From: Treponemataceae bacterium
GTDB lineage: Bacteria > Spirochaetota > Spirochaetia > Treponematales > Rectinemataceae
Assembly: GCA_963677895.2 (NCBI GenBank)
Contig: CAXXGJ010000038.1
Span: forward strand, 64,001-128,000
DNA length: 64,000 nucleotides
Direction: 5' to 3'
Positions 25,409 to 35,296 of the stretch are shown piece after piece; position 1 is the first letter of the stretch, and each line of letters starts with the position of its first letter. The translations under genes and the position numbers were made by a program. The notes under the pieces are model-generated. The model made no database searches. It had not been told where the DNA came from and saw only the letters and a program-made list of their open reading frames with translations.

Positions 25409-26326
25409 ATGACCCTGTTCCTTGCCGCTTTCATATTGGCATGCCTGTGGTGGGCCGGTTTTGCGTTCATTTCGCTCTCCCGCAAGCAGCTGCCGGTCTT
25501 TTTGTTCCTTCTGGCTTCGGGGCTCGTCTGGGCCGCCGCGACATTCACACTCGGCTATTGGGGCGATCCAATGGCCTTAATTCTCTTCACGGTGCCCGTG
25601 CTCGTCATGATCCCCATGATGAGAATCATCAACGAATACCAGCGAGGCGTACTTTTCAGATTGGGACGCATGATGGCCGTCGTCGGACCCGGCTTCAACC
25701 TGGTGCTTCCTTTTGGCCTCGATGTGATGAGGAAAGTCGATATGCGGACCTTCACCATCGACGTGCCAAAACAGGAAGTGATCACGCGCGACAACGTGCC
25801 CGTCCTCGTCGATGCCGTGGTCTACTTCAACGTTTTCGATCCCACGCTCGCGGTTAACAAGGTGGCGGACTACACGAAGAGCACCAGCCTCCTTTCGCAG
25901 ACCATACTCCGCTCCGTACTCGGTCAGCACGATCTCGACGAGATGCTGGCGAAGAGGGCCGAACTGGGACAAAAACTCAAGCTGCTGCTCGACGAAGCCA
26001 CCGATCCCTGGGGAATCAAGGTGACGGCCGTTGAGATAAAGGCCGTGGAACTCGCCGAGACGATGAAGCGGGCCATGGCGAGGCAGGCCGAGGCCGAACG
26101 CGAGCGTCGGGCCAAGATCATCGCCGCCGAAGGCGAACTCCAGGCGAGCGAAAAGCTTTCCCAGGCGGCGACCGTGATGGCCGCGGCGCCTACCTCCATG
26201 CAGCTTCGCTACCTCCAGACGCTTTCGGAGATTGCCGTGGAGAAAAACTCCACGATTATCTTCCCCTTGCCCATGGAATTGCTGAATCATCTCATGCCCG
26301 CGCTGAAGGAGCCCCCTAAACCATGA
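25409..26326 (+). CDS. SPFH/stomatin (slipin) family membrane protein
   Basis: EYQRGVLFRLGR, QEVITRDNV, DPWGIKV, AMARQAEAERERRAKII, QLRYLQTL. Confidence 0.96.
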   Translation: MTLFLAAFILACLWWAGFAFISLSRKQLPVFLFLLASGLVWAAATFTLGYWGDPMALILFTVPVLVMIPMMRIINEYQRGVLFRLGRMMAVVGPGFNLVLPFGLDVMRKVDMRTFTIDVPKQEVITRDNVPVLVDAVVYFNVFDPTLAVNKVADYTKSTSLLSQTILRSVLGQHDLDEMLAKRAELGQKLKLLLDEATDPWGIKVTAVEIKAVELAETMKRAMARQAEAERERRAKIIAAEGELQASEKLSQAATVMAAAPTSMQLRYLQTLSEIAVEKNSTIIFPLPMELLNHLMPALKEPPKP

Positions 26327-26790
26327 AATGTCCACACTGCGGCAGCCTCGATGACAAGGTCATCGATTCCAGGAGCCTCGCCAATGGAGAAGCCATCCGG
26401 CGCAGGAGAGAATGCCTCTCCTGCAACCTCCGTTTCACGAGCTACGAGCGCATAGAGGAAAAGCCCCTCATGGTCGTCAAGCGCGACGGGAGGCGCGAGC
26501 CCTTCGAGCGGAGCAAAATCGAGCGCGGCTTGATACGTTCGCTTGAAAAAAGACCGATCTCCCAAATGTCCATTGAAAACTTCATTAACGAGATCGAGGA
26601 CGAAGCCGCCCAGCTGGCCAAAACCAGCAACGAGATATCGAGCGAAGCGATCGGCAGCATGGTGCTCCGCAGACTGTACGACCTGGATAAGGTCGCGTAT
26701 ATTCGCTTTGCTTCCGTCTACAGGAAATACGAAACCGCCGGGGAGTTTATTCGCGAAATTGAAGCGTTGGGAATGGACGTCGAAAAATAG
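26323..26790 (+). CDS. nrdR: transcriptional repressor NrdR
   Basis: MKCPHC...VIDSR...IRRRRECLSC..RFTSYER, ATP cone, VAYIRFASVY. Confidence 0.98.
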   Translation: MKCPHCGSLDDKVIDSRSLANGEAIRRRRECLSCNLRFTSYERIEEKPLMVVKRDGRREPFERSKIERGLIRSLEKRPISQMSIENFINEIEDEAAQLAKTSNEISSEAIGSMVLRRLYDLDKVAYIRFASVYRKYETAGEFIREIEALGMDVEK

Positions 26791-26852
26791 AATCCTGACG
26801 CTAGACGGATTCTCGAGCCTTCACCTACTCCTTGCGCCGCAGCGATAAACGA

Positions 26853-26889
26853 TTAACGCAATCTTAACCGGTATAGAACCTGCCTTAAC
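26853..26889 (+). promoter_or_regulatory. phased TTAAC direct repeats, candidate KdpE (OmpR-family) site
   Basis: TTAAC at 26853, 26864 and 26885, plus AGAAC at 26875 (11/11/10-bp spacing), upstream of trkA. Confidence 0.55.
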
Positions 26890-26952
26890 AAGCTCTCTAT
26901 TCATCAATGAAGACTCTCCTCGATACATTTAAAGCAACAAGGGGAGGGGAAT

Positions 26953-27582
26953 ATGTTCGTACTCATTGCCGGAAGTGGAAGGCTAGGCGTCGGTCTCGCG
27001 AGGGCGATGTCCTCGCGACAGGACGATGTAGTCATAGTGGATTCTGGCCTCAAACAAGAAAGGGTGGGCGAGGGATTTGACGGACTTGTCGTGGATGGCG
27101 ATCCCATGGACATGGAAGTTCTGGAGCGATCGGGGGCAAGGAACGCGGCGCTCTTCATCGCGGCTACCGCGGACGACAATGTGAATATTTGCTGTGCGCA
27201 GGCGGCTAAAGTCCTTTTCGGCGTTAAAGAAGTACTTGCGAGAATCGCCGATCCCGAGCGGGAAGCCTTTTACCGCGAATTGGGAATGAATACCGTCTGT
27301 CCCACCATAACGGGAATCAACCAGGTTCTGGAACTCATACTCAACGATAGGTACGATGTCCTCAGCGCTAGCATTGATCCTGCGTTTCTCTGCGTACATC
27401 CTCCAGAAACCTGGCTTGGTATGCCCTTTTCCAGCGTGAAACCGCCGGTAAAGATGAAAATAGTCGGTCTTCTGAAGGAAGGCCGCCTTGCGAAGATCGC
27501 GGGAAAGGAAATCGTCCGTCGGAACGATACGGTCATCATCGCCAGAGCGAAGGAGAAAGGAGGGCGCTTATGGATCGCGTGA
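26953..27582 (+). CDS. trkA: TrkA/KtrA-family RCK protein (1)
   Basis: IAGSGRLG Rossmann motif, ATADDNVN, VCPT. Confidence 0.92.
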   Translation: MFVLIAGSGRLGVGLARAMSSRQDDVVIVDSGLKQERVGEGFDGLVVDGDPMDMEVLERSGARNAALFIAATADDNVNICCAQAAKVLFGVKEVLARIADPEREAFYRELGMNTVCPTITGINQVLELILNDRYDVLSASIDPAFLCVHPPETWLGMPFSSVKPPVKMKIVGLLKEGRLAKIAGKEIVRRNDTVIIARAKEKGGRLWIA

Positions 27583-28238
27583 TAGTGATCGGCGCCGGCA
27601 AAGTGGGATTTCATCTGGCCAAGGTACTATGCGCTTCAGATTACGAAGTCGTGCTCGTAGAGCGTGAGGATGCAAGAGGATCGGCGATCGCCGAAATGCT
27701 CGAGGTAAAAGTGTTCTGCGGAGACGGAAGCGACCTGCTCATACTAAAAGACGCGGGCGCCGAGCAGGCGATGTACCTTGTCGCCGTGACGGGAAGCGAT
27801 GCGGACAATCTCGTGGCTTGCCAGATTGCCAAGGAACATTTCCATGTACCGCACACCATAGCCAGGGTGATAGATCCTAATAACGAAAAGCTTTTTCGGT
27901 CTCTTGGCGTGGATGCCGTCATCAGCACGACGGCCTTGGCCGCGACGACCATCGGCAACGTGCTTCCATCGAATGGCCTGCGGCTTACCTCAATTTTCGA
28001 CCGAGGAGATGTCGAGCTGGCCGAGATGAGCCTCGCGGAAGATTCGCCTGTGGTTGGGCAGCCGGTTTCGGAGCTGCACTTGCCCGATGACTGCCTTCTC
28101 GTCGCCATATTGCGCGGCGATACGGTCTCGCTGCCGAGAGGTCGCAGCGTACTGCAGCCGATGGACAGGGTGTTCGCCGTGGCGCGCCGCAGCGCGGCGC
28201 CCGCGCTGCGGCGCGCCCTCATGGGGGGAAAGGAATGA
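27570..28238 (+). CDS. trkA: TrkA/KtrA-family RCK protein (2)
   Basis: IGAGKVG, GDGS, VTGSDADNL; RCK-C motif SPVVG..V.EL.LP...LLVAILR. Confidence 0.94.
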   Translation: MDRVIVIGAGKVGFHLAKVLCASDYEVVLVEREDARGSAIAEMLEVKVFCGDGSDLLILKDAGAEQAMYLVAVTGSDADNLVACQIAKEHFHVPHTIARVIDPNNEKLFRSLGVDAVISTTALAATTIGNVLPSNGLRLTSIFDRGDVELAEMSLAEDSPVVGQPVSELHLPDDCLLVAILRGDTVSLPRGRSVLQPMDRVFAVARRSAAPALRRALMGGKE

Positions 28239-28375
28239 AACGGAGCCTCGTGAAAAGACGCTCGTTTTCTCCCCTCATTATAGGTGTGCTCGCCGAGATA
28301 GGCTACGCCGCGGCTATCGGCGCGATTGGTATTCTCGTCTGCGCGTCGGCTCTTCTCGTGTCGGGGGTCCTATGA
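28235..28375 (+). CDS. 46-aa single-pass membrane peptide (not in ORF track)
   Basis: MKRSLVKRRSFSPLIIGVLAEIGYAAAIGAIGILVCASALLVSGVL. ATGA overlaps with the trkA2 stop and the trkH start; purine-rich SD upstream. Confidence 0.7.
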   Translation: MKRSLVKRRSFSPLIIGVLAEIGYAAAIGAIGILVCASALLVSGVL

Positions 28376-29880
28376 AATCTTCGCCGAGGTGGAGGGATCT
28401 CGGAATTGTCCTCCACTACACGGGTAAAATCCTCGCGGGTTTTTCTTTTCTTTGCCTCATTCCTGCGCTGACGTCCCTCTTTGCCGGCGAATTCGTGCCA
28501 GCCGTGGATTTTTTGTTGAGTTTCGGCGCGATACTGACCGTCGGCGCCTGCCTTGCGGTCTTTTTTCGGAATGGAAGCAGGCCTGGATGGATGCATGGCA
28601 TGGCTACGGCGGGCATTTCATGGCTTGCCGCGATGGTCGTGTCGGCGCTTCCGTATTGGCTGTCCGGACACTACCTCTCCTATCTCGATGCCATGTTCGA
28701 TGTCATGAGTGGGCTTACGACGACGGGGCTCACGCTCATACAGGACCTCGACCACGTCTCTATTGGGCTGAACATGTGGCGTCATCTGCTCACCTTCGTA
28801 GGCGGGCAGGGGATCATCGTCCTGGCATTGGCGCTCTTTGTCGATGGCAGCGGCGGAGGCTATGGTTTCTATGTGGGCGAAGGGAAGGATGAAAGGCTTT
28901 TTCCTAGTGTCATGCACACGGCGAAAGCCATATGGAGAATCAGCTTTCTCTATCTCGCGGTCGGCACCGCCGCGTTTTGGCTGGCGGGGATGTCGATCGG
29001 ACTCTCACCGATTAGGGCATTCCTGCACGGGCTTTGGATATATATGGCGGCGTGGAGCACTGGAGGATTCGCCCCGATGTCCCAAAATGTGCTCTACTAT
29101 CACAGCGCGCTCTATGAGGCGATCACTTTTATTTTCTTCGTGGTGGGCTCCTTCAACTTCGCGCTCCACGCGGCGGTACTCAAGGGGAACCGGAAAGAAC
29201 TGGTTAAAAATATTGAGACTATTTCCTTCGGCACGACGCTCTGTCTCCTCACGATGCTCGCGTGCTGGGGATTGGTGAAGCTTCACGTCTACCCGGATTT
29301 GGTGACCCTTATCAGGAAGGGCTTTTATCAGCTTGCCTCGGCGCATACGACAACCGGATTCATGACGATCTATCCCCGGCAGTTCGCGACCGAATGGGGC
29401 GATCTCGCCCTTCTCGCCGTGATTGTGGCAATGATGATAGGGGGAAGCGCATGTTCCACGGCCGGCGGGTTCAAGGGACTTCGCGTTGGTATTCTCTTTA
29501 AGGCAATCATCCAGGATACTAAACGTCTCCTCAGGCCTAGCTCGTCGGTCGTGGTGCAGAAATACAGCTATCATGGCGTCCGTACCCTCGGCGAGCAGCA
29601 AGTGAGGGGAGCCGCGCTTGTGGTTCTCATGTATGTGGGCATATTCGCCTTCGCCACGGCGGCGGGCTGTCTCGCCGGCTTTCCCTTTCTCGAAGCGGCA
29701 TTCGAATCGGCATCCGTGACAGGAAACGTCGGCCTCAGCATTGGGGTGACGACAGCCTCGACTCCTATGGGCCTAAAGCTCGTCTACATTTTTAACATGT
29801 GGGCTGGCAGACTCGAGTTCATGGCGGTTCTGGCTTCGGCGGGGTTCGTGGCGTCGCTATTCGGGAAGAGGAAGTTATGA
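28372..29880 (+). CDS. trkH: TrkH-family potassium uptake membrane protein
   Basis: Four filter motifs TTTGLT, STGGFA, TTTGF, GNVGLS; GGSACSTAGGFK; GRLEF. Confidence 0.96.
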   Translation: MKSSPRWRDLGIVLHYTGKILAGFSFLCLIPALTSLFAGEFVPAVDFLLSFGAILTVGACLAVFFRNGSRPGWMHGMATAGISWLAAMVVSALPYWLSGHYLSYLDAMFDVMSGLTTTGLTLIQDLDHVSIGLNMWRHLLTFVGGQGIIVLALALFVDGSGGGYGFYVGEGKDERLFPSVMHTAKAIWRISFLYLAVGTAAFWLAGMSIGLSPIRAFLHGLWIYMAAWSTGGFAPMSQNVLYYHSALYEAITFIFFVVGSFNFALHAAVLKGNRKELVKNIETISFGTTLCLLTMLACWGLVKLHVYPDLVTLIRKGFYQLASAHTTTGFMTIYPRQFATEWGDLALLAVIVAMMIGGSACSTAGGFKGLRVGILFKAIIQDTKRLLRPSSSVVVQKYSYHGVRTLGEQQVRGAALVVLMYVGIFAFATAAGCLAGFPFLEAAFESASVTGNVGLSIGVTTASTPMGLKLVYIFNMWAGRLEFMAVLASAGFVASLFGKRKL

Positions 29881-30413
29881 AAAAAGATACTTCATTAAGA
29901 AGCCTGATCCTCATTTTGTTTATGCTTGCTATGGCACTTGCCCCGACGGCGGCCGAATCGGGACCGGGTTTTTTAGCTGCCGTCCCAGCCATTCACCTCT
30001 CCGATATCGTTGAAAAGGCTTCAGCATACGATGGAGCGAAAGTCGCGATAGAGGGCGAGATTATCGGCGACGTGATGGCGAGAGGCGATCATTCGTGGAT
30101 CAATATCCTGGACAGCGGGACAGCCGTGGGCGTATGGGTGGGAAAGAACCGACTGCCTGAAATTGCGTATTTCGGAAACTATGGAGCCATAGGTGACAGG
30201 GTGTACATAACCGGCATCATGCACAGGGCATGCCCGGAGCATGGCGGCGATCTGGATATTCATGCCGAAACGATTGAACTTGTTAAAAAAGGCATACCGA
30301 TTTCTCATCCGCTCGACCTGAAGCGCCTTGGCGCCGCGATGGCGTTCAGTGTTTCTGGTATACTGCTCGCGATTTTGTGGTGGAAACGGGAAAGGCAGGA
30401 AAAAAGATCGTGA
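29877..30413 (+). CDS. exported, C-terminally anchored OB-fold-like protein
   Basis: Signal peptide; YDGAKVAIEGEIIG...GDRVYITG OB-like pattern; CPEHGGDLDIH; C-terminal TM and basic tail; ATGA overlap with trkH. Confidence 0.75.
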   Translation: MKKDTSLRSLILILFMLAMALAPTAAESGPGFLAAVPAIHLSDIVEKASAYDGAKVAIEGEIIGDVMARGDHSWINILDSGTAVGVWVGKNRLPEIAYFGNYGAIGDRVYITGIMHRACPEHGGDLDIHAETIELVKKGIPISHPLDLKRLGAAMAFSVSGILLAILWWKRERQEKRS

Positions 30414-30474
30414 GCAAGGTTTCAAATGTCTTGCTACACTTATCTCAATGCGCAATAGTTATCGGGGAGCAAAG

Positions 30475-32427
30475 ATGGAAGAATCGGCGGACGAGGGCGG
30501 CGAGGGGCATCGCGGCGACAGGGCAAAGATCGCCGTAGGCGTCGGGAGTTCTCCCAACTCGGCGCGCTTGGTGCGTTGGGCGCAGCGTGCGGCGGCCGGT
30601 CTACACGTGGACTGGATTGCCTTTCATGTCGATGGCGGAGTTCTGCTAGGCAGCAAGGACAGAGAGCGCCTGGAGGCCAATCTCGATTTAGCGAGGAACC
30701 TGGGCGCCCAAGTGGCGACGATAGTCGGATCCGACGTGGTGAGGGCTTTGATAGACGGGGCCAAGGCTAAAAGCGCAACGATGCTCGTTATAGGGCGTTC
30801 TGGGCTGTCCCGCCTCGGCCACTTTTGGGCAAGGGCGACCATCTCAGACAGAATCCTTCGGGAAGCCGGTCCGCTCGATGTCGTTGTAGTGAGTGATTCG
30901 AAGGAAGCTGGCAATGATTTTACCCTCGCGTCCATCCGGAAGACATTCAGCGCGCCTTTTCGCCAGTACGGCCTTCTCCTTCTGGTATTTGCTCTCGCAA
31001 CAATCATCTGTCTGGTTCTCGCGCCGGTTACGGGGCATAGGAGCGTCGCTTTTCTCTATCTCGCGGCCGTGCTCTTTCTCTCGCTCGTATCGGGGCCTGG
31101 GCCGGTGGTCTTGCTCGCCATCTTGTCATCCCTCGCGTACAATTTCTTTTTCATTCCGCCGCGTTTCACGTTCGCGATCTCATCTCCTGAGGACATTCTC
31201 CTTTTTGGGCTTTATTTCCTTGTAGCGGCGGTAACGGGTTCCCTCTCCGCTGGGTTGCGATCGCGGGAGCGACTTCTCCAGCGAAGGGACAGGGAAGCAT
31301 CGCTGCTATTGGCCGCCGCCGAGCGGCTCTCCGAACTCAGCTCGATACGGGATGCGGCGGCGGCTTCGGCTACGCTCGTGGAAGGCTACAATGCCGCCCC
31401 CGCGGTCGTGTACGTTGTCGGCGATCTAACCAGGCAAGGGCTCTTTTTTGCCAGCGGTGCAGAGAACCTTGAGGAAATCGACAGGAAGGCGGCGAAGTAC
31501 TGTGCCGAAGAAAGCGAAGTATGCGGCGAGGGAACGGATCGCTTTCCGGAATCGTCCTACCGTTTTATACCGGCGCGGGCGCGGTCGAGCGCGGTGGCTG
31601 CCATCGGGGTTTCCCGCAATAGAAAGCGGAATAATTTCCAGTCCGGAGATGATGAGCTTTTCGCTGCTCTCGGAAGAAGTCTCGCCCTGTTCATAGAGAG
31701 GGAACGTTCCGAAGAAGCATCGAGGATAGCCACGCTCGAACTTGAATCGGAGCGTCTCGCGAAAGTGCTCTTCGATTCCGTATCCCATGAGCTCAAGACG
31801 CCCCTTACGACTATTACTGGTTCCTTAAGCGCCCTGAGGGACGAGGCGATAGCTTCCAATCCCGCGGCGAGACTGGAACTGCTCGAGGGCGCCCTCAGTT
31901 CGGCCGGACATCTGAATGAGATTGTGGAGGATTTTCTTTCCATTGGAAGGATGGAATCGGGGAGACTGAGGTTGAAGTGTAACCTGACCGAGGCGAGAGA
32001 CCTCGCCGCGGCGGCGACCGCCGCTGCGGCGGAGTCTCTCGCGGGGCGACGAGTGAATGTCTTTCTTCCAGAGAACCCCTGCGATTTCCGGGTTGACGTT
32101 GTTTTAGTAGTTCGGCTCATAAAGAACCTTCTGGAGAACGCCTGCCGTTATTCCCGCAAAAACGGTTTTGTGGAACTGCGTCTCATATCCCGAGACAATG
32201 GTCTCGTGATTACCGTCGCGGATGAAGGACCCGGTTTTGGAGACGAGCGGATGAGGGCGCCTTTCGTGAAGTTTAAGCGCGCCGAAGGCGACGCTCCAGG
32301 GGGGCTCGGTCTCGGACTCGCGATGTGCAGGGGAATAGTTGAGGCACATGGAGGCAGCATAGCGGCTCGCCGGTCCGCAGGCGGATTCGAGGTTGAAGCG
32401 ATTTTCCCGAACTGCCAAGGAGGGTAA
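30475..32427 (+). CDS. kdpD: KdpD-like sensor histidine kinase lacking the N-terminal KdpD domain
   Basis: Usp domain (SPNSARLVRWA, LARNLGA, LVIGRS), 4-TM region (NFFFIPPRFTF), GAF-like region, SVSHELKTPL, NLLENACRY, GLGLGLAMC. Confidence 0.9.
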   Translation: MEESADEGGEGHRGDRAKIAVGVGSSPNSARLVRWAQRAAAGLHVDWIAFHVDGGVLLGSKDRERLEANLDLARNLGAQVATIVGSDVVRALIDGAKAKSATMLVIGRSGLSRLGHFWARATISDRILREAGPLDVVVVSDSKEAGNDFTLASIRKTFSAPFRQYGLLLLVFALATIICLVLAPVTGHRSVAFLYLAAVLFLSLVSGPGPVVLLAILSSLAYNFFFIPPRFTFAISSPEDILLFGLYFLVAAVTGSLSAGLRSRERLLQRRDREASLLLAAAERLSELSSIRDAAAASATLVEGYNAAPAVVYVVGDLTRQGLFFASGAENLEEIDRKAAKYCAEESEVCGEGTDRFPESSYRFIPARARSSAVAAIGVSRNRKRNNFQSGDDELFAALGRSLALFIERERSEEASRIATLELESERLAKVLFDSVSHELKTPLTTITGSLSALRDEAIASNPAARLELLEGALSSAGHLNEIVEDFLSIGRMESGRLRLKCNLTEARDLAAAATAAAAESLAGRRVNVFLPENPCDFRVDVVLVVRLIKNLLENACRYSRKNGFVELRLISRDNGLVITVADEGPGFGDERMRAPFVKFKRAEGDAPGGLGLGLAMCRGIVEAHGGSIAARRSAGGFEVEAIFPNCQGG

Positions 32428-32432
32428 GAATT

Positions 32433-33113
32433 GTGCGAGTCCTCGTCATAGACGATGAAGTCAGGATACGCCGACTTCTCTCCATCGCCCTTGGGAGCAA
32501 GGGCTGGGAAGTCTTCGAGGCGCCAAACGGCTTCGAAGGCATCCAAGCTATCATGGCGTCCAAACCAGATGTCGTCCTTCTCGATCTAAATCTTCCGGAC
32601 ATGGGCGGCGCAGAGTTGCTTCGCAGCGTCAGAGGCTGGAGCAGCGTTCCAGTCGTGATTGTCTCGGTGCGCGATTCCCAGGACGATATAATAGCCCTTT
32701 TGGACGCTGGCGCCGACGACTACATTGTAAAACCTTTCTATACGGACGAAGTATTCGCGCGTCTGTCAGCGGTGTGCAGAAGGAAATGGCAGGATGGCGG
32801 TTCCATCTATCGCAGAGGAGCCCTGGAAATGGACCTCGGGAAGCGGCACATCGCTAGAAACGGCGAGGAAATCCATCTTACGAACACCGAATACGCTGTC
32901 CTGGAGATACTTCTACGCCATGCGGGGAAGATCGTCACGAGGGATAGACTCCTGAGGGAAGTATGGGGTCCCGCGGGCGAAGCGGAGGAGGGTAGCCTGC
33001 GCGTCCATATTCGGGCTCTCAGAAGAAAACTCGAAGAAGACGATGAGCATCCTTCGCTCATCGTAACAGAGCCCGGTGTCGGTTACAGGGTAGCGATTTC
33101 AGAATCACCCTGA
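32433..33113 (+). CDS. kdpE: KdpE-like OmpR-family response regulator
   Basis: IDDE, LDLNLPD, GADDYIVKPF, IHLT..EY, LRVHI..LRRKLE, IVTEPGVGYR. Confidence 0.92.
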   Translation: MRVLVIDDEVRIRRLLSIALGSKGWEVFEAPNGFEGIQAIMASKPDVVLLDLNLPDMGGAELLRSVRGWSSVPVVIVSVRDSQDDIIALLDAGADDYIVKPFYTDEVFARLSAVCRRKWQDGGSIYRRGALEMDLGKRHIARNGEEIHLTNTEYAVLEILLRHAGKIVTRDRLLREVWGPAGEAEEGSLRVHIRALRRKLEEDDEHPSLIVTEPGVGYRVAISESP

Positions 33114-33143: not shown

Positions 33144-33174
33144 AAAAAAAGGGCTGCCGGTTTTCGGCAGCCCT
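33144..33174 (-). terminator. intrinsic terminator of the EF-G paralogue (convergent with kdpE)
   Basis: AAAAAAAGGGCTGCCG-GTTTT-CGGCAGCCCT. Confidence 0.8.
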
Positions 33175-33199
33175 CGTCATTACATGATGAAATACCGAA

Positions 33200-35296
33200 T
33201 CACTCTTCCTCGGCCTCGGCCGTCTTGAAGGCCTGGGCGGCTTTGATGACATCCTCGGCGATCTTGCCGGAGATGGGAGCGTAATGGGAAAAATCGACTT
33301 CGAACGAAGCGGTTCCCGAGGTCATGGAGCGGAGATCGATGGCGTAGCGGAGAAGCTCGGCTTGGGGAACCTGCGCGTCGACTTCGACAATGCCGCCGCC
33401 GATGGGGTTGCTGCCGGAAATCCTGCCCCTGCGGCCCGAGAGATCCGACATGACGTCGCCGAGATTTTTTTCTTCCGCGAAGACCTTGAGGTCCATGATA
33501 GGCTCCAGGAGGGTGGGGTTGGCGGTCTTGGACGCTTCGCGGAAAGCGCCTCTGGACGCCAGCTTGAAGGCCATTTCTGAGGAATCCACGGGATGTTCCT
33601 TGCCGTCCGTGATGGCGGTTTTCACGTCCACGACGGGGTAGCCCGCGACCACGCCGTTTTCCATCGCCTGATGGATGCCTTTCTCGATGCCGGGAATAAA
33701 GCCGCGGGATACGGACTGACCGAACAGCTTATTCTCGAACTGATAGCCTGCGCCCCGCTCCAAAGGTTCGACCTCGAAGACTACGCGAGCGTACTGGCCA
33801 TGGCCGCCAGTCTGCTTTTTATGCGTATACTCAGCGCCGGATTTCTTGGTTATGGTTTCCCGGTAGGCAACGCGAGGAATCCTCGTCTCGGCCATGATCT
33901 TGGCTTGATTCCTGATCTTGTCGAGGATCATGGTGATCTGAAGATCGCCCATGCCCGCGATGACGGTTTCCTTGGTCTCGACATTGTAGTTTACCTGGAA
34001 GGTCAAATCTTCCTCGGCCGCTTTCAGGAGGAGCTCGTTCAGCTTATCCTCTTCCTTCTTATTGGCGGCGGAGATGGCGACGAGATGGACGGGGGTAGGG
34101 AGCTTCAGGGGTTTGAAGGAGTAGGGCCGATCCATCGCGGAAATGGTATCGTTCGTCTTGAGGCTCGCGGCTTTCGCGATGATGCCGATGTCGCCGGCGA
34201 CGAGCGCCTGGGTTTCCTCGATTTTTTTGCCCTGCGCCGTATAGAGCTTGGAAAGGCGATCCTTTCTGCCGTCGCGCACGTTGACGAATTCGAGTTCCGG
34301 CACGAGGGAGCCGGTGAAAACCTTCACGATGGAAAGGCGGCCCGAAAACTGGTCGATCTGCGTCTTGATGACCATGGCGGTCGCCGGCTTGGCGGCATCA
34401 ACGGATACCTCCATCATGTTGCCGTCGAAATCCTTTACTTCCTCGGCTCCATGAGAGAGGGGAGTGGGCGCCATGAGGGCCAGGAAATCGATAAGAGCGG
34501 CCGTGCCGATGTTCTTGAGTCCGGAACCGGCGAAGGCGGGGACAATTTTCGCGAGAGAGAGGGCGGCGCGGAGGCCGAGAATCATGTCTTCCTGGCTCAG
34601 TTCTCCCTGGTCAAGGTATTTTTCCATGAGGGCGTCTTCGCCTTCGGCCGCGGCTTCGAAAAGCTGGAGCCTGGCGGTTTCCAGCGCTTCCTTATATTCG
34701 GCCGGAACATCGGTGACGATCTCTTTCTGGTCGCCCGCGGCCGGCTTCATATACGCTTTCGCGTTGATGACATCGATAACGCCTTTGATTTCCAATCCTT
34801 CGCCCATGGGGATCGTGACGGGAACCGGCGCGATCTTGAACTTGGCTTTTATATCCTCAAGGCATGCGCCGAAGGACGCGCGATCCTCATCCATCCTGGT
34901 TATGAATACCATGCGCGGCTTGGAACGGCTGTCCAGATTTCTCCAGAGCTTGATGGTCTCGATCTGGACGCCCGATCTGGCGTCGATCAGGAGGAGGGCA
35001 CTCTCGCAAGCCCTGAATGCGAGAATGACCTCGCCTACGAAATCCGAGGATCCGGGCGTGTCGATGAAGTTGATCTTGGTGTCTCTGACGACGCAATGCG
35101 TCAGCGTTGAGCGAACTGATATCTTGCGCGCGATTTCGTCCTCACCGAAATCGCTGACAGTCTTGCCGGATTCGATGGTTTCTGGCTTGGATATCACTCC
35201 GCCCTGAAAGAGAATGTGTTCGAGCAGCGTTGTCTTGCCGGTACTCCCGTGGCCGGCTATGGCGATGTTTCTGATCTGATCGGTTGCGAACGACAT
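33200..35296 (-). CDS. fusA2: elongation factor G paralogue (EF-G2 type)
   Basis: IRNIAIAGHGSTGKTT, DTPG, VAYRETI, KKQTGGHGQYA, VDSSEMAF, LLEPI. Divergent switch I and G4; not in a str operon. Confidence 0.9.
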   Translation of the reverse strand: MSFATDQIRNIAIAGHGSTGKTTLLEHILFQGGVISKPETIESGKTVSDFGEDEIARKISVRSTLTHCVVRDTKINFIDTPGSSDFVGEVILAFRACESALLLIDARSGVQIETIKLWRNLDSRSKPRMVFITRMDEDRASFGACLEDIKAKFKIAPVPVTIPMGEGLEIKGVIDVINAKAYMKPAAGDQKEIVTDVPAEYKEALETARLQLFEAAAEGEDALMEKYLDQGELSQEDMILGLRAALSLAKIVPAFAGSGLKNIGTAALIDFLALMAPTPLSHGAEEVKDFDGNMMEVSVDAAKPATAMVIKTQIDQFSGRLSIVKVFTGSLVPELEFVNVRDGRKDRLSKLYTAQGKKIEETQALVAGDIGIIAKAASLKTNDTISAMDRPYSFKPLKLPTPVHLVAISAANKKEEDKLNELLLKAAEEDLTFQVNYNVETKETVIAGMGDLQITMILDKIRNQAKIMAETRIPRVAYRETITKKSGAEYTHKKQTGGHGQYARVVFEVEPLERGAGYQFENKLFGQSVSRGFIPGIEKGIHQAMENGVVAGYPVVDVKTAITDGKEHPVDSSEMAFKLASRGAFREASKTANPTLLEPIMDLKVFAEEKNLGDVMSDLSGRRGRISGSNPIGGGIVEVDAQVPQAELLRYAIDLRSMTSGTASFEVDFSHYAPISGKIAEDVIKAAQAFKTAEAEEE

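Follow-up and report, generated by a model that had tools for sequence, protein, structure and literature searches.

Organization of the trk-kdpDE locus

The DNA analyzed here, referred to below as the window, is a stretch of 64,000 nt from contig CAXXGJ010000038.1 (C38, positions 64,001 to 128,000) of the Treponemataceae bacterium genome assembly GCA_963677895.2 (G000), from an uncultured spirochaete; other L and G numbers denote the loci and genomes fetched for comparison. On the basis of open reading frame (ORF) positions and family scans, seven genes were recognized on the forward strand, namely two trkA genes, a gene for a small peptide, trkH, a gene for an OB-fold protein (OB gene), and kdpD-like and kdpE-like genes. 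The first five form a Trk-type K+ channel module, and the regulation and composition of this module are the subject of this report. The features of the locus are as follows.

26852..26900, forward strand: predicted KdpE box with half-sites at 26852, 26863, 26884, and 26895 (spacing 11/21/11)
26924..26929, forward strand: putative -10 hexamer TANNNT, at a conserved distance from the box
26953..27582, forward strand: trkA1, single-RCK gating subunit (TrkA_N PF02254, E 3.7e-21; TrkA_C not detected)
27570..28238, forward strand: trkA2, single-RCK gating subunit (TrkA_N PF02254 and TrkA_C PF02080)
28235..28375, forward strand: 46-aa single-helix membrane peptide, G17-x3-E21 conserved, outside known families
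28372..29880, forward strand: trkH, divergent TrkH-type K+ channel subunit of 502 aa (PF02386)
29877..30413, forward strand: 178-aa OB-fold protein, signal-like helix at the N-terminus and membrane anchor at the C-terminus, predicted to be an extracellular TrkH cap
30475..32427, forward strand: kdpD without the N-terminal serine kinase domain, 650 aa (Usp-TM4-GAF-HisKA-HATPase by Pfam)
32433..33113, forward strand: kdpE, OmpR-family response regulator (Response_reg-Trans_reg_C; best NCBIfam match KdpE)

The trkA1 and trkA2 genes overlapped by 13 nt, and the next three junctions were ATGA overlaps. Gaps of 61 nt and 5 nt separated the OB gene from kdpD and kdpD from kdpE, respectively, and the start ATG of kdpD was located behind GGGGAG. 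An earlier note on this DNA, made from its letters alone, had described the same gene order with overlapping stops and starts, and this description was borne out by the ORF positions together with the Pfam and NCBIfam scans. No RNA element was listed at the locus in an RNA scan.

A kdpF-type promoter upstream of trkA

The trkA promoter (26852-26929) was found to contain four TTAAC-type half-sites and a -10 hexamer arranged as in the kdpF promoters of the same family. The repeat was absent from the earlier note, although it lies at the very position where the region described there begins. As a triple repeat, it was matched once in the window and not at all in 100 shuffles, and with a matrix built from five kdpF promoters, the site at 26852 scored at the top of the genome (22.5, followed by 17.3 for the next site; 3.5 Mb, both strands). 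The four-site layout was common to 25 promoters (19 trk and 6 kdpF), and TANNNT was present at an offset of 71-74 in 20 of them (14/19 trk and 6/6 kdpF). Furthermore, the repeat preceded kdpF in seven of eight kdpFABC loci of relatives, the eighth being cut off upstream, and in one further locus found later. A consensus -35 element was not found at the trkA promoter, where a sigma-70 scan gave nothing, and no good box site was seen in L130. According to PMC3264566, KdpE of E. coli binds two 6-bp direct repeats spaced 5 bp apart. Since the trkA promoter has the layout of a kdpF promoter, the adjacent KdpD/KdpE pair likely switches the operon on.

When trkA promoters of other loci were scored with the kdpF matrix, all 20 with kdpDE in cis reached at least 12.4 and 31 of the 32 without kdpDE in cis remained at or below 9.3, but kinship confounds this contrast, the 31 low scorers falling outside the kdpDE-linked TrkH clade. 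The single exception among the 32 (L120) is a same-order contig ending at the OB gene. Together with the drawing of the negative promoter set from unrelated bacteria, the not fully blind nature of the test (the kdpF sites were located by the pattern first seen at the trk promoters), and the generic character of the half-site, which in 11 of 16 further sites fetched precedes pstS-like ABC operons, this confounding weighs against assigning the box to KdpE.

The generic half-site leads to an alternative in which the repeat would be a box of the Pho type or be bound by some other regulator of the OmpR family, kdpDE being a mere neighbor. A family-wide pattern search gave matches in 28 of 69 genomes, and the 16 regions fetched comprised 11 upstream of pstS-like operons (spacing 11/22), four before trkA, kdpD, or kdpE-like genes, and one unrelated; the TTAAY half-site with its 11-bp period is thus shared with pstS-like operons in 11 family genomes, and at least six other OmpR-type regulators are encoded in the genome of the window. 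The 11/22 spacing was, however, not seen at the window site, where it is 11/21/11, and the matrices separated the two promoter types: all 21 trk promoters favored the kdpF matrix over the pst matrix (22.5 versus -2.7 for the window), and all 11 pst promoters scored at most 3.6 under the kdpF matrix. Moreover, no pstS match was found in the genome of the window, and the extra kdp-type boxes carried by relatives precede kdpD or kdpE genes. A Pho-type or other foreign site is therefore very unlikely.

The pstS-like operons with the 11/22 repeat occurred in L137-L142, L146-L148, L150, and L151, and this repeat is probably the Pho box of the family; the shared half-site would be a possible route for cross-talk between K+ and phosphate. 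In L048 (7458-7750), L114, and L149 (4558-4870), the OB gene and kdpD were separated by a further box of the kdp type and by a short, basic ORF (~60 aa), and this combination occurred in lineages with a full-length degenerate KdpD.

KdpE binding could also serve repression of the trk operon at low K+, shutting a leaky, low-affinity channel. A channel cannot concentrate K+ beyond its electrochemical equilibrium, and given this limit its closure in K+ famine would be sensible. On the other hand, the sites lie upstream of the -10 hexamer exactly as in the KdpE-activated kdpF promoters, no consensus -35 was found, and kdpDE itself is apparently co-transcribed from the trkA promoter, so that repression is to be regarded as extremely improbable compared with the activation proposed here.

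KdpD and KdpE linked to trk

The KdpD of the window consisted of Usp, four-helix DUF4118, GAF, HisKA, and HATPase domains, and its best match in the Pfam and NCBIfam scans was KdpD. The N-terminal KdpD domain (PF02702), a serine kinase with Walker A and B motifs, was absent from the protein of the window and was unmatched in its genome, a loss that had gone unmentioned in the earlier note. Among 22 Trk-linked KdpDs, 18 were devoid of the kinase domain, two had a destroyed Walker A motif, and two had Asp in place of the Walker B Glu; the kinase motifs were intact in all six pump-linked KdpDs. As described in PMC11018627, the KdpB-inhibiting serine kinase resides in this domain and depends on Walker A, D109, and E110. 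The Walker B change examined there was Glu to Ala and not Glu to Asp, which weakens the argument from the two Asp-bearing proteins, and the architecture table given there covers only species with a Kdp pump and may include kinase-only forms. We infer that the loss of the kinase domain is the pattern to be expected if the operon offers the kinase no substrate.

In a quick version of the KdpD tree, which used 37 rows and left out duplicates and two open fragments and whose weight is reduced accordingly, the Trk-linked KdpDs grouped with the pump-linked KdpDs of L018 and L019 (Shimodaira-Hasegawa-like approximate likelihood-ratio support, SH-aLRT, 99), placing the window KdpD among the descendants of kdpFABC-linked KdpD. 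KdpE was 60-65% identical to the kdpFABC-linked KdpE of L018/L019 and fell in the same clade, and its best NCBIfam match, KdpE, reached 194 bits, which is under the cut-off of 325. The recognition helix GSLRV(H/Y)I was common to the trk-linked and pump-linked KdpEs and differed in the second KdpE-like protein of the genome. As compared with the KdpDE-kdpFABC systems of E. coli and of the same family (L017-L021), the present system is alike in the Usp-TM4-GAF-histidine kinase architecture, the OmpR-type regulator, the 6-bp half-sites 5 bp apart, the promoter layout, and the recognition helix; it differs in that the target is a channel operon, the KdpB-directed serine kinase is lost, and no pump genes were found in the genome.

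Control of the trk operon by KdpDE, which the earlier note had proposed from gene adjacency, thus gained support at the sequence level from the kdpF-type promoter, the ancestry of KdpD and KdpE, and the loss of the KdpB-directed kinase domain. Taking these lines together, we consider it very likely that KdpE controls the trk operon.

The Usp domain of the window KdpD reads RxxxR-X8-WxAF, which is near the E. coli type. It did not show the SXS-X20-FTAXY motif of cyclic di-AMP (c-di-AMP)-binding KdpD of the S. aureus type, as given in PMC4686210 and PMC8214093.

Among the 17 genomes of the order with the OB gene, 15 carried kdpD or kdpDE in cis, one a kdpE remnant, and one ended at a contig end. 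In L119 (1-1300, G116), all that remained behind the OB gene was a decayed piece of the DNA-binding domain of KdpE, kdpD being apparently deleted, and an insertion of ~1.7 kb interrupted the Trk-linked full-length kdpD of L109 (2531-6899, G142). Two kdpFABC operons (L018:6208-7563 and L019:11546-12805) ended in a second, partial kdpD encoding Usp and transmembrane segments with no kinase, in addition to a divergent full-length kdpD.

The genome of the window also encodes further TrkH genes (five matches in all) and a second KdpD-like pair, and these count against the mechanism proposed here. The latter was located at C6:322450-326093 (L002), behind a second trkH, and consists of a short KdpD-like kinase (DUF4118-HisKA-HATPase) and a response regulator whose recognition helix differs; neither trkA, the peptide, nor the OB gene was present in cis, and no kdp-type box was observed there. 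The end of C29 (L005) was a partial duplicate of L002 and resembles a strain duplication or contamination.

The TrkH and TrkA subunits

TrkH retained the features of the SKT (Trk/Ktr/HKT) K+ channels. The filter glycines G119, G232, G329, and G454, one per pore loop, and the D4M2 arginine R480 were present in 60 of 60 sequences, and in the intramembrane gating loop (357-368), G357, S362, T363, G365, and K368 were invariant; an RCK partner is encoded alongside. The best solved match was Vibrio TrkH (4j9u, E 6.6e-33). Four histidines, H100, H128, H219, and H244, were likewise invariant.

The channel was nevertheless distinct from the E. coli type of TrkAH, which consists of one tandem-RCK TrkA of ~458 aa and a TrkH scoring over the family cut-off. 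The TrkAs were 209 and 222 aa in length, and TrkH scored 211 bits for TIGR00933 (cut-off 331) and 130 for PRK10750 (866). Accordingly, while the TrkH fold, the four filter glycines, the intramembrane loop, the D4M2 arginine, and the RCK subunits are shared with TrkAH of Vibrio parahaemolyticus and E. coli (4j9u, 3pjz), the present system has one RCK domain in each of two separate TrkA genes, together with the conserved peptide and the OB-fold partner; its TrkH is divergent and falls short of the TIGR00933 cut-off, and its promoter is of the KdpE type. A diadenylate cyclase (PF02457) is encoded in the same genome (C18:466058-466411), and c-di-AMP could therefore act on the TrkA ring.

The OB-fold protein as a predicted TrkH cap

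The OB fold of the 178-aa protein, suggested in the earlier note, was confirmed by an AlphaFold2 model (mean predicted local distance difference test score, pLDDT, 90.5) and by two fold searches. The leading OB-fold match gave Z 12.3 (root-mean-square deviation, rmsd, 1.7; 85 residues aligned), followed by YgiW (Z 11.5, rmsd 2.1, 85) and CcmE (Z 10.0, rmsd 3.8, 93), and the top 50 matches were OB folds, KdpC not being among those listed. A signal-like N-terminus was found in 44 of 60 members and a C-terminal anchor with a basic tail in 53 of 60, and because of this signal-like helix and the C-terminal membrane helix with its basic tail, the barrel would be situated outside the membrane. Like YgiW (BOF family) and CcmE, the protein would be a small exported OB barrel; unlike them, it has a C-terminal anchor, the motif HRAC-x-EHGGDLDIH, and a fixed linkage to trkH. 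No BOF or CcmE Pfam match was obtained in the 60 members (BOF at E 0.05), no Pfam family covered the protein (the best was found in 3/60 members), and only unnamed clusters contained it in the Atlas. The name "DNA-binding protein" given in source records was rejected because of the signal-like N-terminus, the anchor with its basic tail, and the predicted position on the outer loops.

The complex was modeled from TrkH, the peptide, and residues 30-178 of the OB protein, and the OB protein was scored as the partner. The OB-TrkH score was 0.82, the best of three controls being 0.01; of 157 solved complexes, 116 attain the mark applied, as do 2 of 215 mismatched pairs, although these calibration counts hold only roughly here, because our own alignments and three chains were used, and this takes something from the strength of the prediction. 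The runs agreed in at least 97% of contacts, and the pLDDT of the partner was at least 85. The barrel was predicted to contact TrkH at 127-131, 236-246, 306-316, and 332-341, positions that take in the loops following pore segments 1-3. For the anchor helix, packing on TrkH 40-66 was predicted. The tightest predicted TrkH-OB pairs, Y242-N76, H244-W74, and H128-Y102, involved invariant or near-invariant residues, and in the OB domain conservation was higher at the interface than elsewhere (0.75 vs 0.57, p 0.0014). Structure searches found no solved complex of the OB-TrkH kind, and the OB profile had no sequence match in the PDB. From these predictions, we consider it quite likely that the OB protein binds TrkH as a subunit.

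The placement of the OB protein on TrkH is predicted to be much like that of KdpC on KdpA. Both would place a periplasmic domain with a single anchor close to the selectivity filter, but the anchor is C-terminal in the OB protein and N-terminal in KdpC, where a hydrophobic N-terminus was seen. Homology to KdpC was rejected: the hhalign probability was 1.2%, and no PF02669 match was found in the 60 members. For KdpC, a role as a lid on the pore or in increasing the affinity has been suggested (PMC6255902).

The residues C119, H122, D127, and H129 were invariant in the OB protein. They point to an alternative role under the same KdpE control, in which the protein would be a gate or sensor, e.g., a metal- or redox-responsive plug acting through Cys, His, and Asp, or would change the selectivity. 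YgiW and CcmE, which are among the closest folds, bind ligands in the periplasm, and the invariant TrkH histidines H100, H128, H219, and H244 would fit such a role as well. Many of the invariant residues nevertheless fall in the predicted interface, which explains their conservation without a ligand, all four filter glycines are kept, and a kdpF-type promoter precedes the operon. We thus judge a gate, sensor, or selectivity changer to be unlikely.

The membrane peptide

Among 68 loci with a complete trkH, 63 carried the peptide, four from one clade lacked it, and one was cut off, so that the peptide directly preceded trkH in 63 of the 67 assessable loci. When the gene was compared with two copies from the same genus, third codon positions accounted for 11 of 17 substitutions in one case and 22 of 40 in the other; together with the retention in 63 of 67 loci, this marks it as a real coding gene. 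In 60 sequences, G17 was invariant and E21 was conserved in at least 90%. Pfam gave no family common to two members, and leads from the Atlas were under 0.9. The gene linkage suggests, with moderate confidence, that the peptide is a further channel subunit.

KdpF resembles the peptide in its tiny size, its membrane location, and the position of its gene immediately ahead of that for the channel-like subunit, but G-x3-E is found here in place of the C-terminal PE(R/K)F of KdpF. Homology was rejected, since the hhalign probability against four KdpF peptides from relatives was 0.5% and PE(R/K)F was absent. The idea in the earlier note that the two extra subunits are analogous to KdpF and KdpC therefore held for the predicted KdpC-like placement of the OB protein and did not extend to homology of either one. 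In L034, L035, L046, and L098, the clade without the peptide, trkA2 and trkH were 4-6 nt apart, the first TrkA was shortened, and the OB gene was kept.

Distribution of the module and its relation to kdpFABC

Relatives of the OB protein numbered 338 by word search and 1323 clusters at 50% identity by profile search. Their source names included Spirochaetales, Omnitrophota, Margulisbacteria, Clostridiaceae, and Angelakisella, to which the Atlas added Actinomycetota. In a set of 106 fetched OB loci, which includes some near-duplicates and whose metagenome part is the best 80 of 477 matches, trkH was directly upstream in 98, a contig edge in seven, and ~200 nt without a match in one. In the plasmids and viral contigs searched, no OB gene was found. 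Within the spirochaetes, the spread was patchy: one family had the module in 11 of its 53 genomes and a second in 5 of 36, and the other four families of the order sample had none. In total, 16 of 200 other genomes of the order and 0 of 400 further genomes of the phylum carried it. Such a distribution fits older transfer or loss.

In another group, the OB gene was present in 45 of 51 genomes and a DUF4118 sensor in only 4 of 51, so the module normally works without KdpD there. As the OB gene mostly occurs without such a sensor, the accessory genes are not tied to induction, which is a further point against the mechanism proposed here. A survey of gene neighborhoods, which the earlier note had called for, thus led to a different picture from the one it drew: the five-gene module is widespread without KdpDE, and the accessory genes are not specific to the KdpDE wiring. 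These extra genes are part of a Trk subfamily that is widespread and mostly free of KdpDE, and hence did not arise with the rewiring. In many of the loci without kdpDE (L039, L047, L050, L072, L086-L088, and L101), the module stood directly behind the apparent end of a gene that we take to be the ribosomal protein gene rplT, suggesting constitutive expression.

In the TrkH tree, six loci (L032, L042, L057, L071, L084, and L100) were nested within the unregulated modules and encoded a mini-KdpD of 340-348 aa, consisting of only transmembrane and kinase parts, and a KdpE whose recognition helix differs. Besides these, they carried the genes for the peptide, TrkH, and the OB protein, with no trkA in cis. 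These loci carried a different 11-bp TTGAC direct repeat, which occurred six times in 909 kb and only there. KdpDE-type regulators were thus likely recruited to the module at least twice, the module being older than the link.

The absence of kdpA, kdpB, and kdpC from the window, stated in the earlier note, was confirmed and extended to the genome (92.8% complete, 5.5% contaminated), in which a profile search gave no match for KdpA, KdpC, the KdpD N-terminal domain, or Kup and none for KdpB over the cut-off. As a rule, however, the reading that the Trk operon takes the place of kdpFABC was not sustained, since three relatives have both systems. Of 53 other family genomes, 11 had the module, 16 had kdpA, and three had both, with 3.3 expected by chance; mutual exclusion was accordingly rejected, and these counts speak against a general replacement of the pump. 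Because the genomes with both systems carry two KdpDs each, the Trk operon appears to have its own KdpDE copy, and in G098 and G183 a box preceded both operons. The Trk operon stands without kdpFABC only in genomes such as that of the window.

With 92.8% completeness and a same-genus relative (G098) that has kdpFABC, a kdpFABC operon in the unassembled part of the genome could be the main KdpE target, the trk operon being constitutive or only weakly tuned. Against this, the same-genus G189 (97% complete, eight contigs) has the module and no kdpA; in genomes with both systems, a separate KdpD goes with each, as does a separate box where the sequence could be read; and the box is kept at trkA across two families. 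A concealed pump operon as the main target is therefore quite unlikely, and the trk operon is favored as the target of the adjacent KdpE.

Proposed mechanism and significance

Considering the sequence comparisons and structural models together, we regard as fairly probable a KdpE-induced five-gene Trk module, in which a trimmed KdpD and KdpE would switch on expression at low K+ and the OB protein would cap TrkH. By analogy with E. coli, the trimmed KdpD would sense K+ via its transmembrane/GAF part and phosphorylate KdpE. Phosphorylated KdpE would then bind the two half-site pairs upstream of the -10 hexamer and activate one transcript, including kdpD and kdpE themselves. As in the TrkAH family, TrkH would conduct K+ down the electrochemical gradient, with a mixed TrkA1/TrkA2 ring as the gate and no ATP-driven pumping. 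The exported OB domain, which its C-terminal helix would tether to the N-terminal TrkH helices, would sit on the loops after pore segments 1-3 and is predicted to shape ion entry or stabilize the filter, and the peptide, judging from gene linkage, may be an additional membrane subunit. KdpD would have dropped its serine-kinase domain because the operon has no KdpB to inhibit.

Because a channel is limited by the electrochemical equilibrium, it is doubtful that the module would equal the pump at micromolar K+, except where this limit is shifted by the accessory proteins or by ion coupling. Only tentatively do we suggest that the TrkH subfamily with cap and peptide might be a higher-affinity K+ uptake complex convergent on the KdpC/KdpF design without an ATPase, repeatedly placed under KdpDE as a cheap Kdp substitute, with the KdpD kinase pruned each time.

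Trk is usually described as a two-component system of TrkH and TrkA and, in PMC3610689, as constitutive. This subfamily appears to add an extracellular cap and a membrane peptide, and some lineages, as judged from their promoters, appear to add an inducible KdpE promoter. In the literature searched, consisting of partly accessible texts with most subscription journals outside it, no KdpE-controlled trk operon and no Trk accessory OB protein or peptide was found. The two partners of this conserved Trk channel thus appear to be undescribed so far; in this lineage, the channel also has a kdpF-type KdpE promoter and a KdpD without the pump-inhibiting kinase. An ATPase-free channel of this kind would allow a direct test of the effect that a cap has on a K+ selectivity filter, a question left unresolved for KdpC in PMC6255902. 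Similarly, the graded loss of the KdpD serine kinase without KdpB in cis offers a natural experiment that fits the domain function reported in 2024 (PMC11018627). A likely role is also provided for a large family named "hypothetical" or "DNA-binding protein" in databases.

Codon usage and flanking genes

The lower proportion of G and C at third codon positions (GC3) noticed by eye in the earlier note was reproduced but mild, being 0.64 for the cluster and 0.72 for the median over 1663 crudely called genes. The seven cluster genes lay at percentiles 7-34, and several other genes of the window were equally low; the recent horizontal acquisition hinted at there was not shown by GC3.

The module is flanked by an SPFH-domain gene and nrdR (25409-26790) on one side and by a convergent EF-G-like gene (33200-35296) on the other, and the same flanks recurred in L025, L105, and L106. 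A hairpin at 33149-33175 resembles a terminator of the EF-G-like gene.

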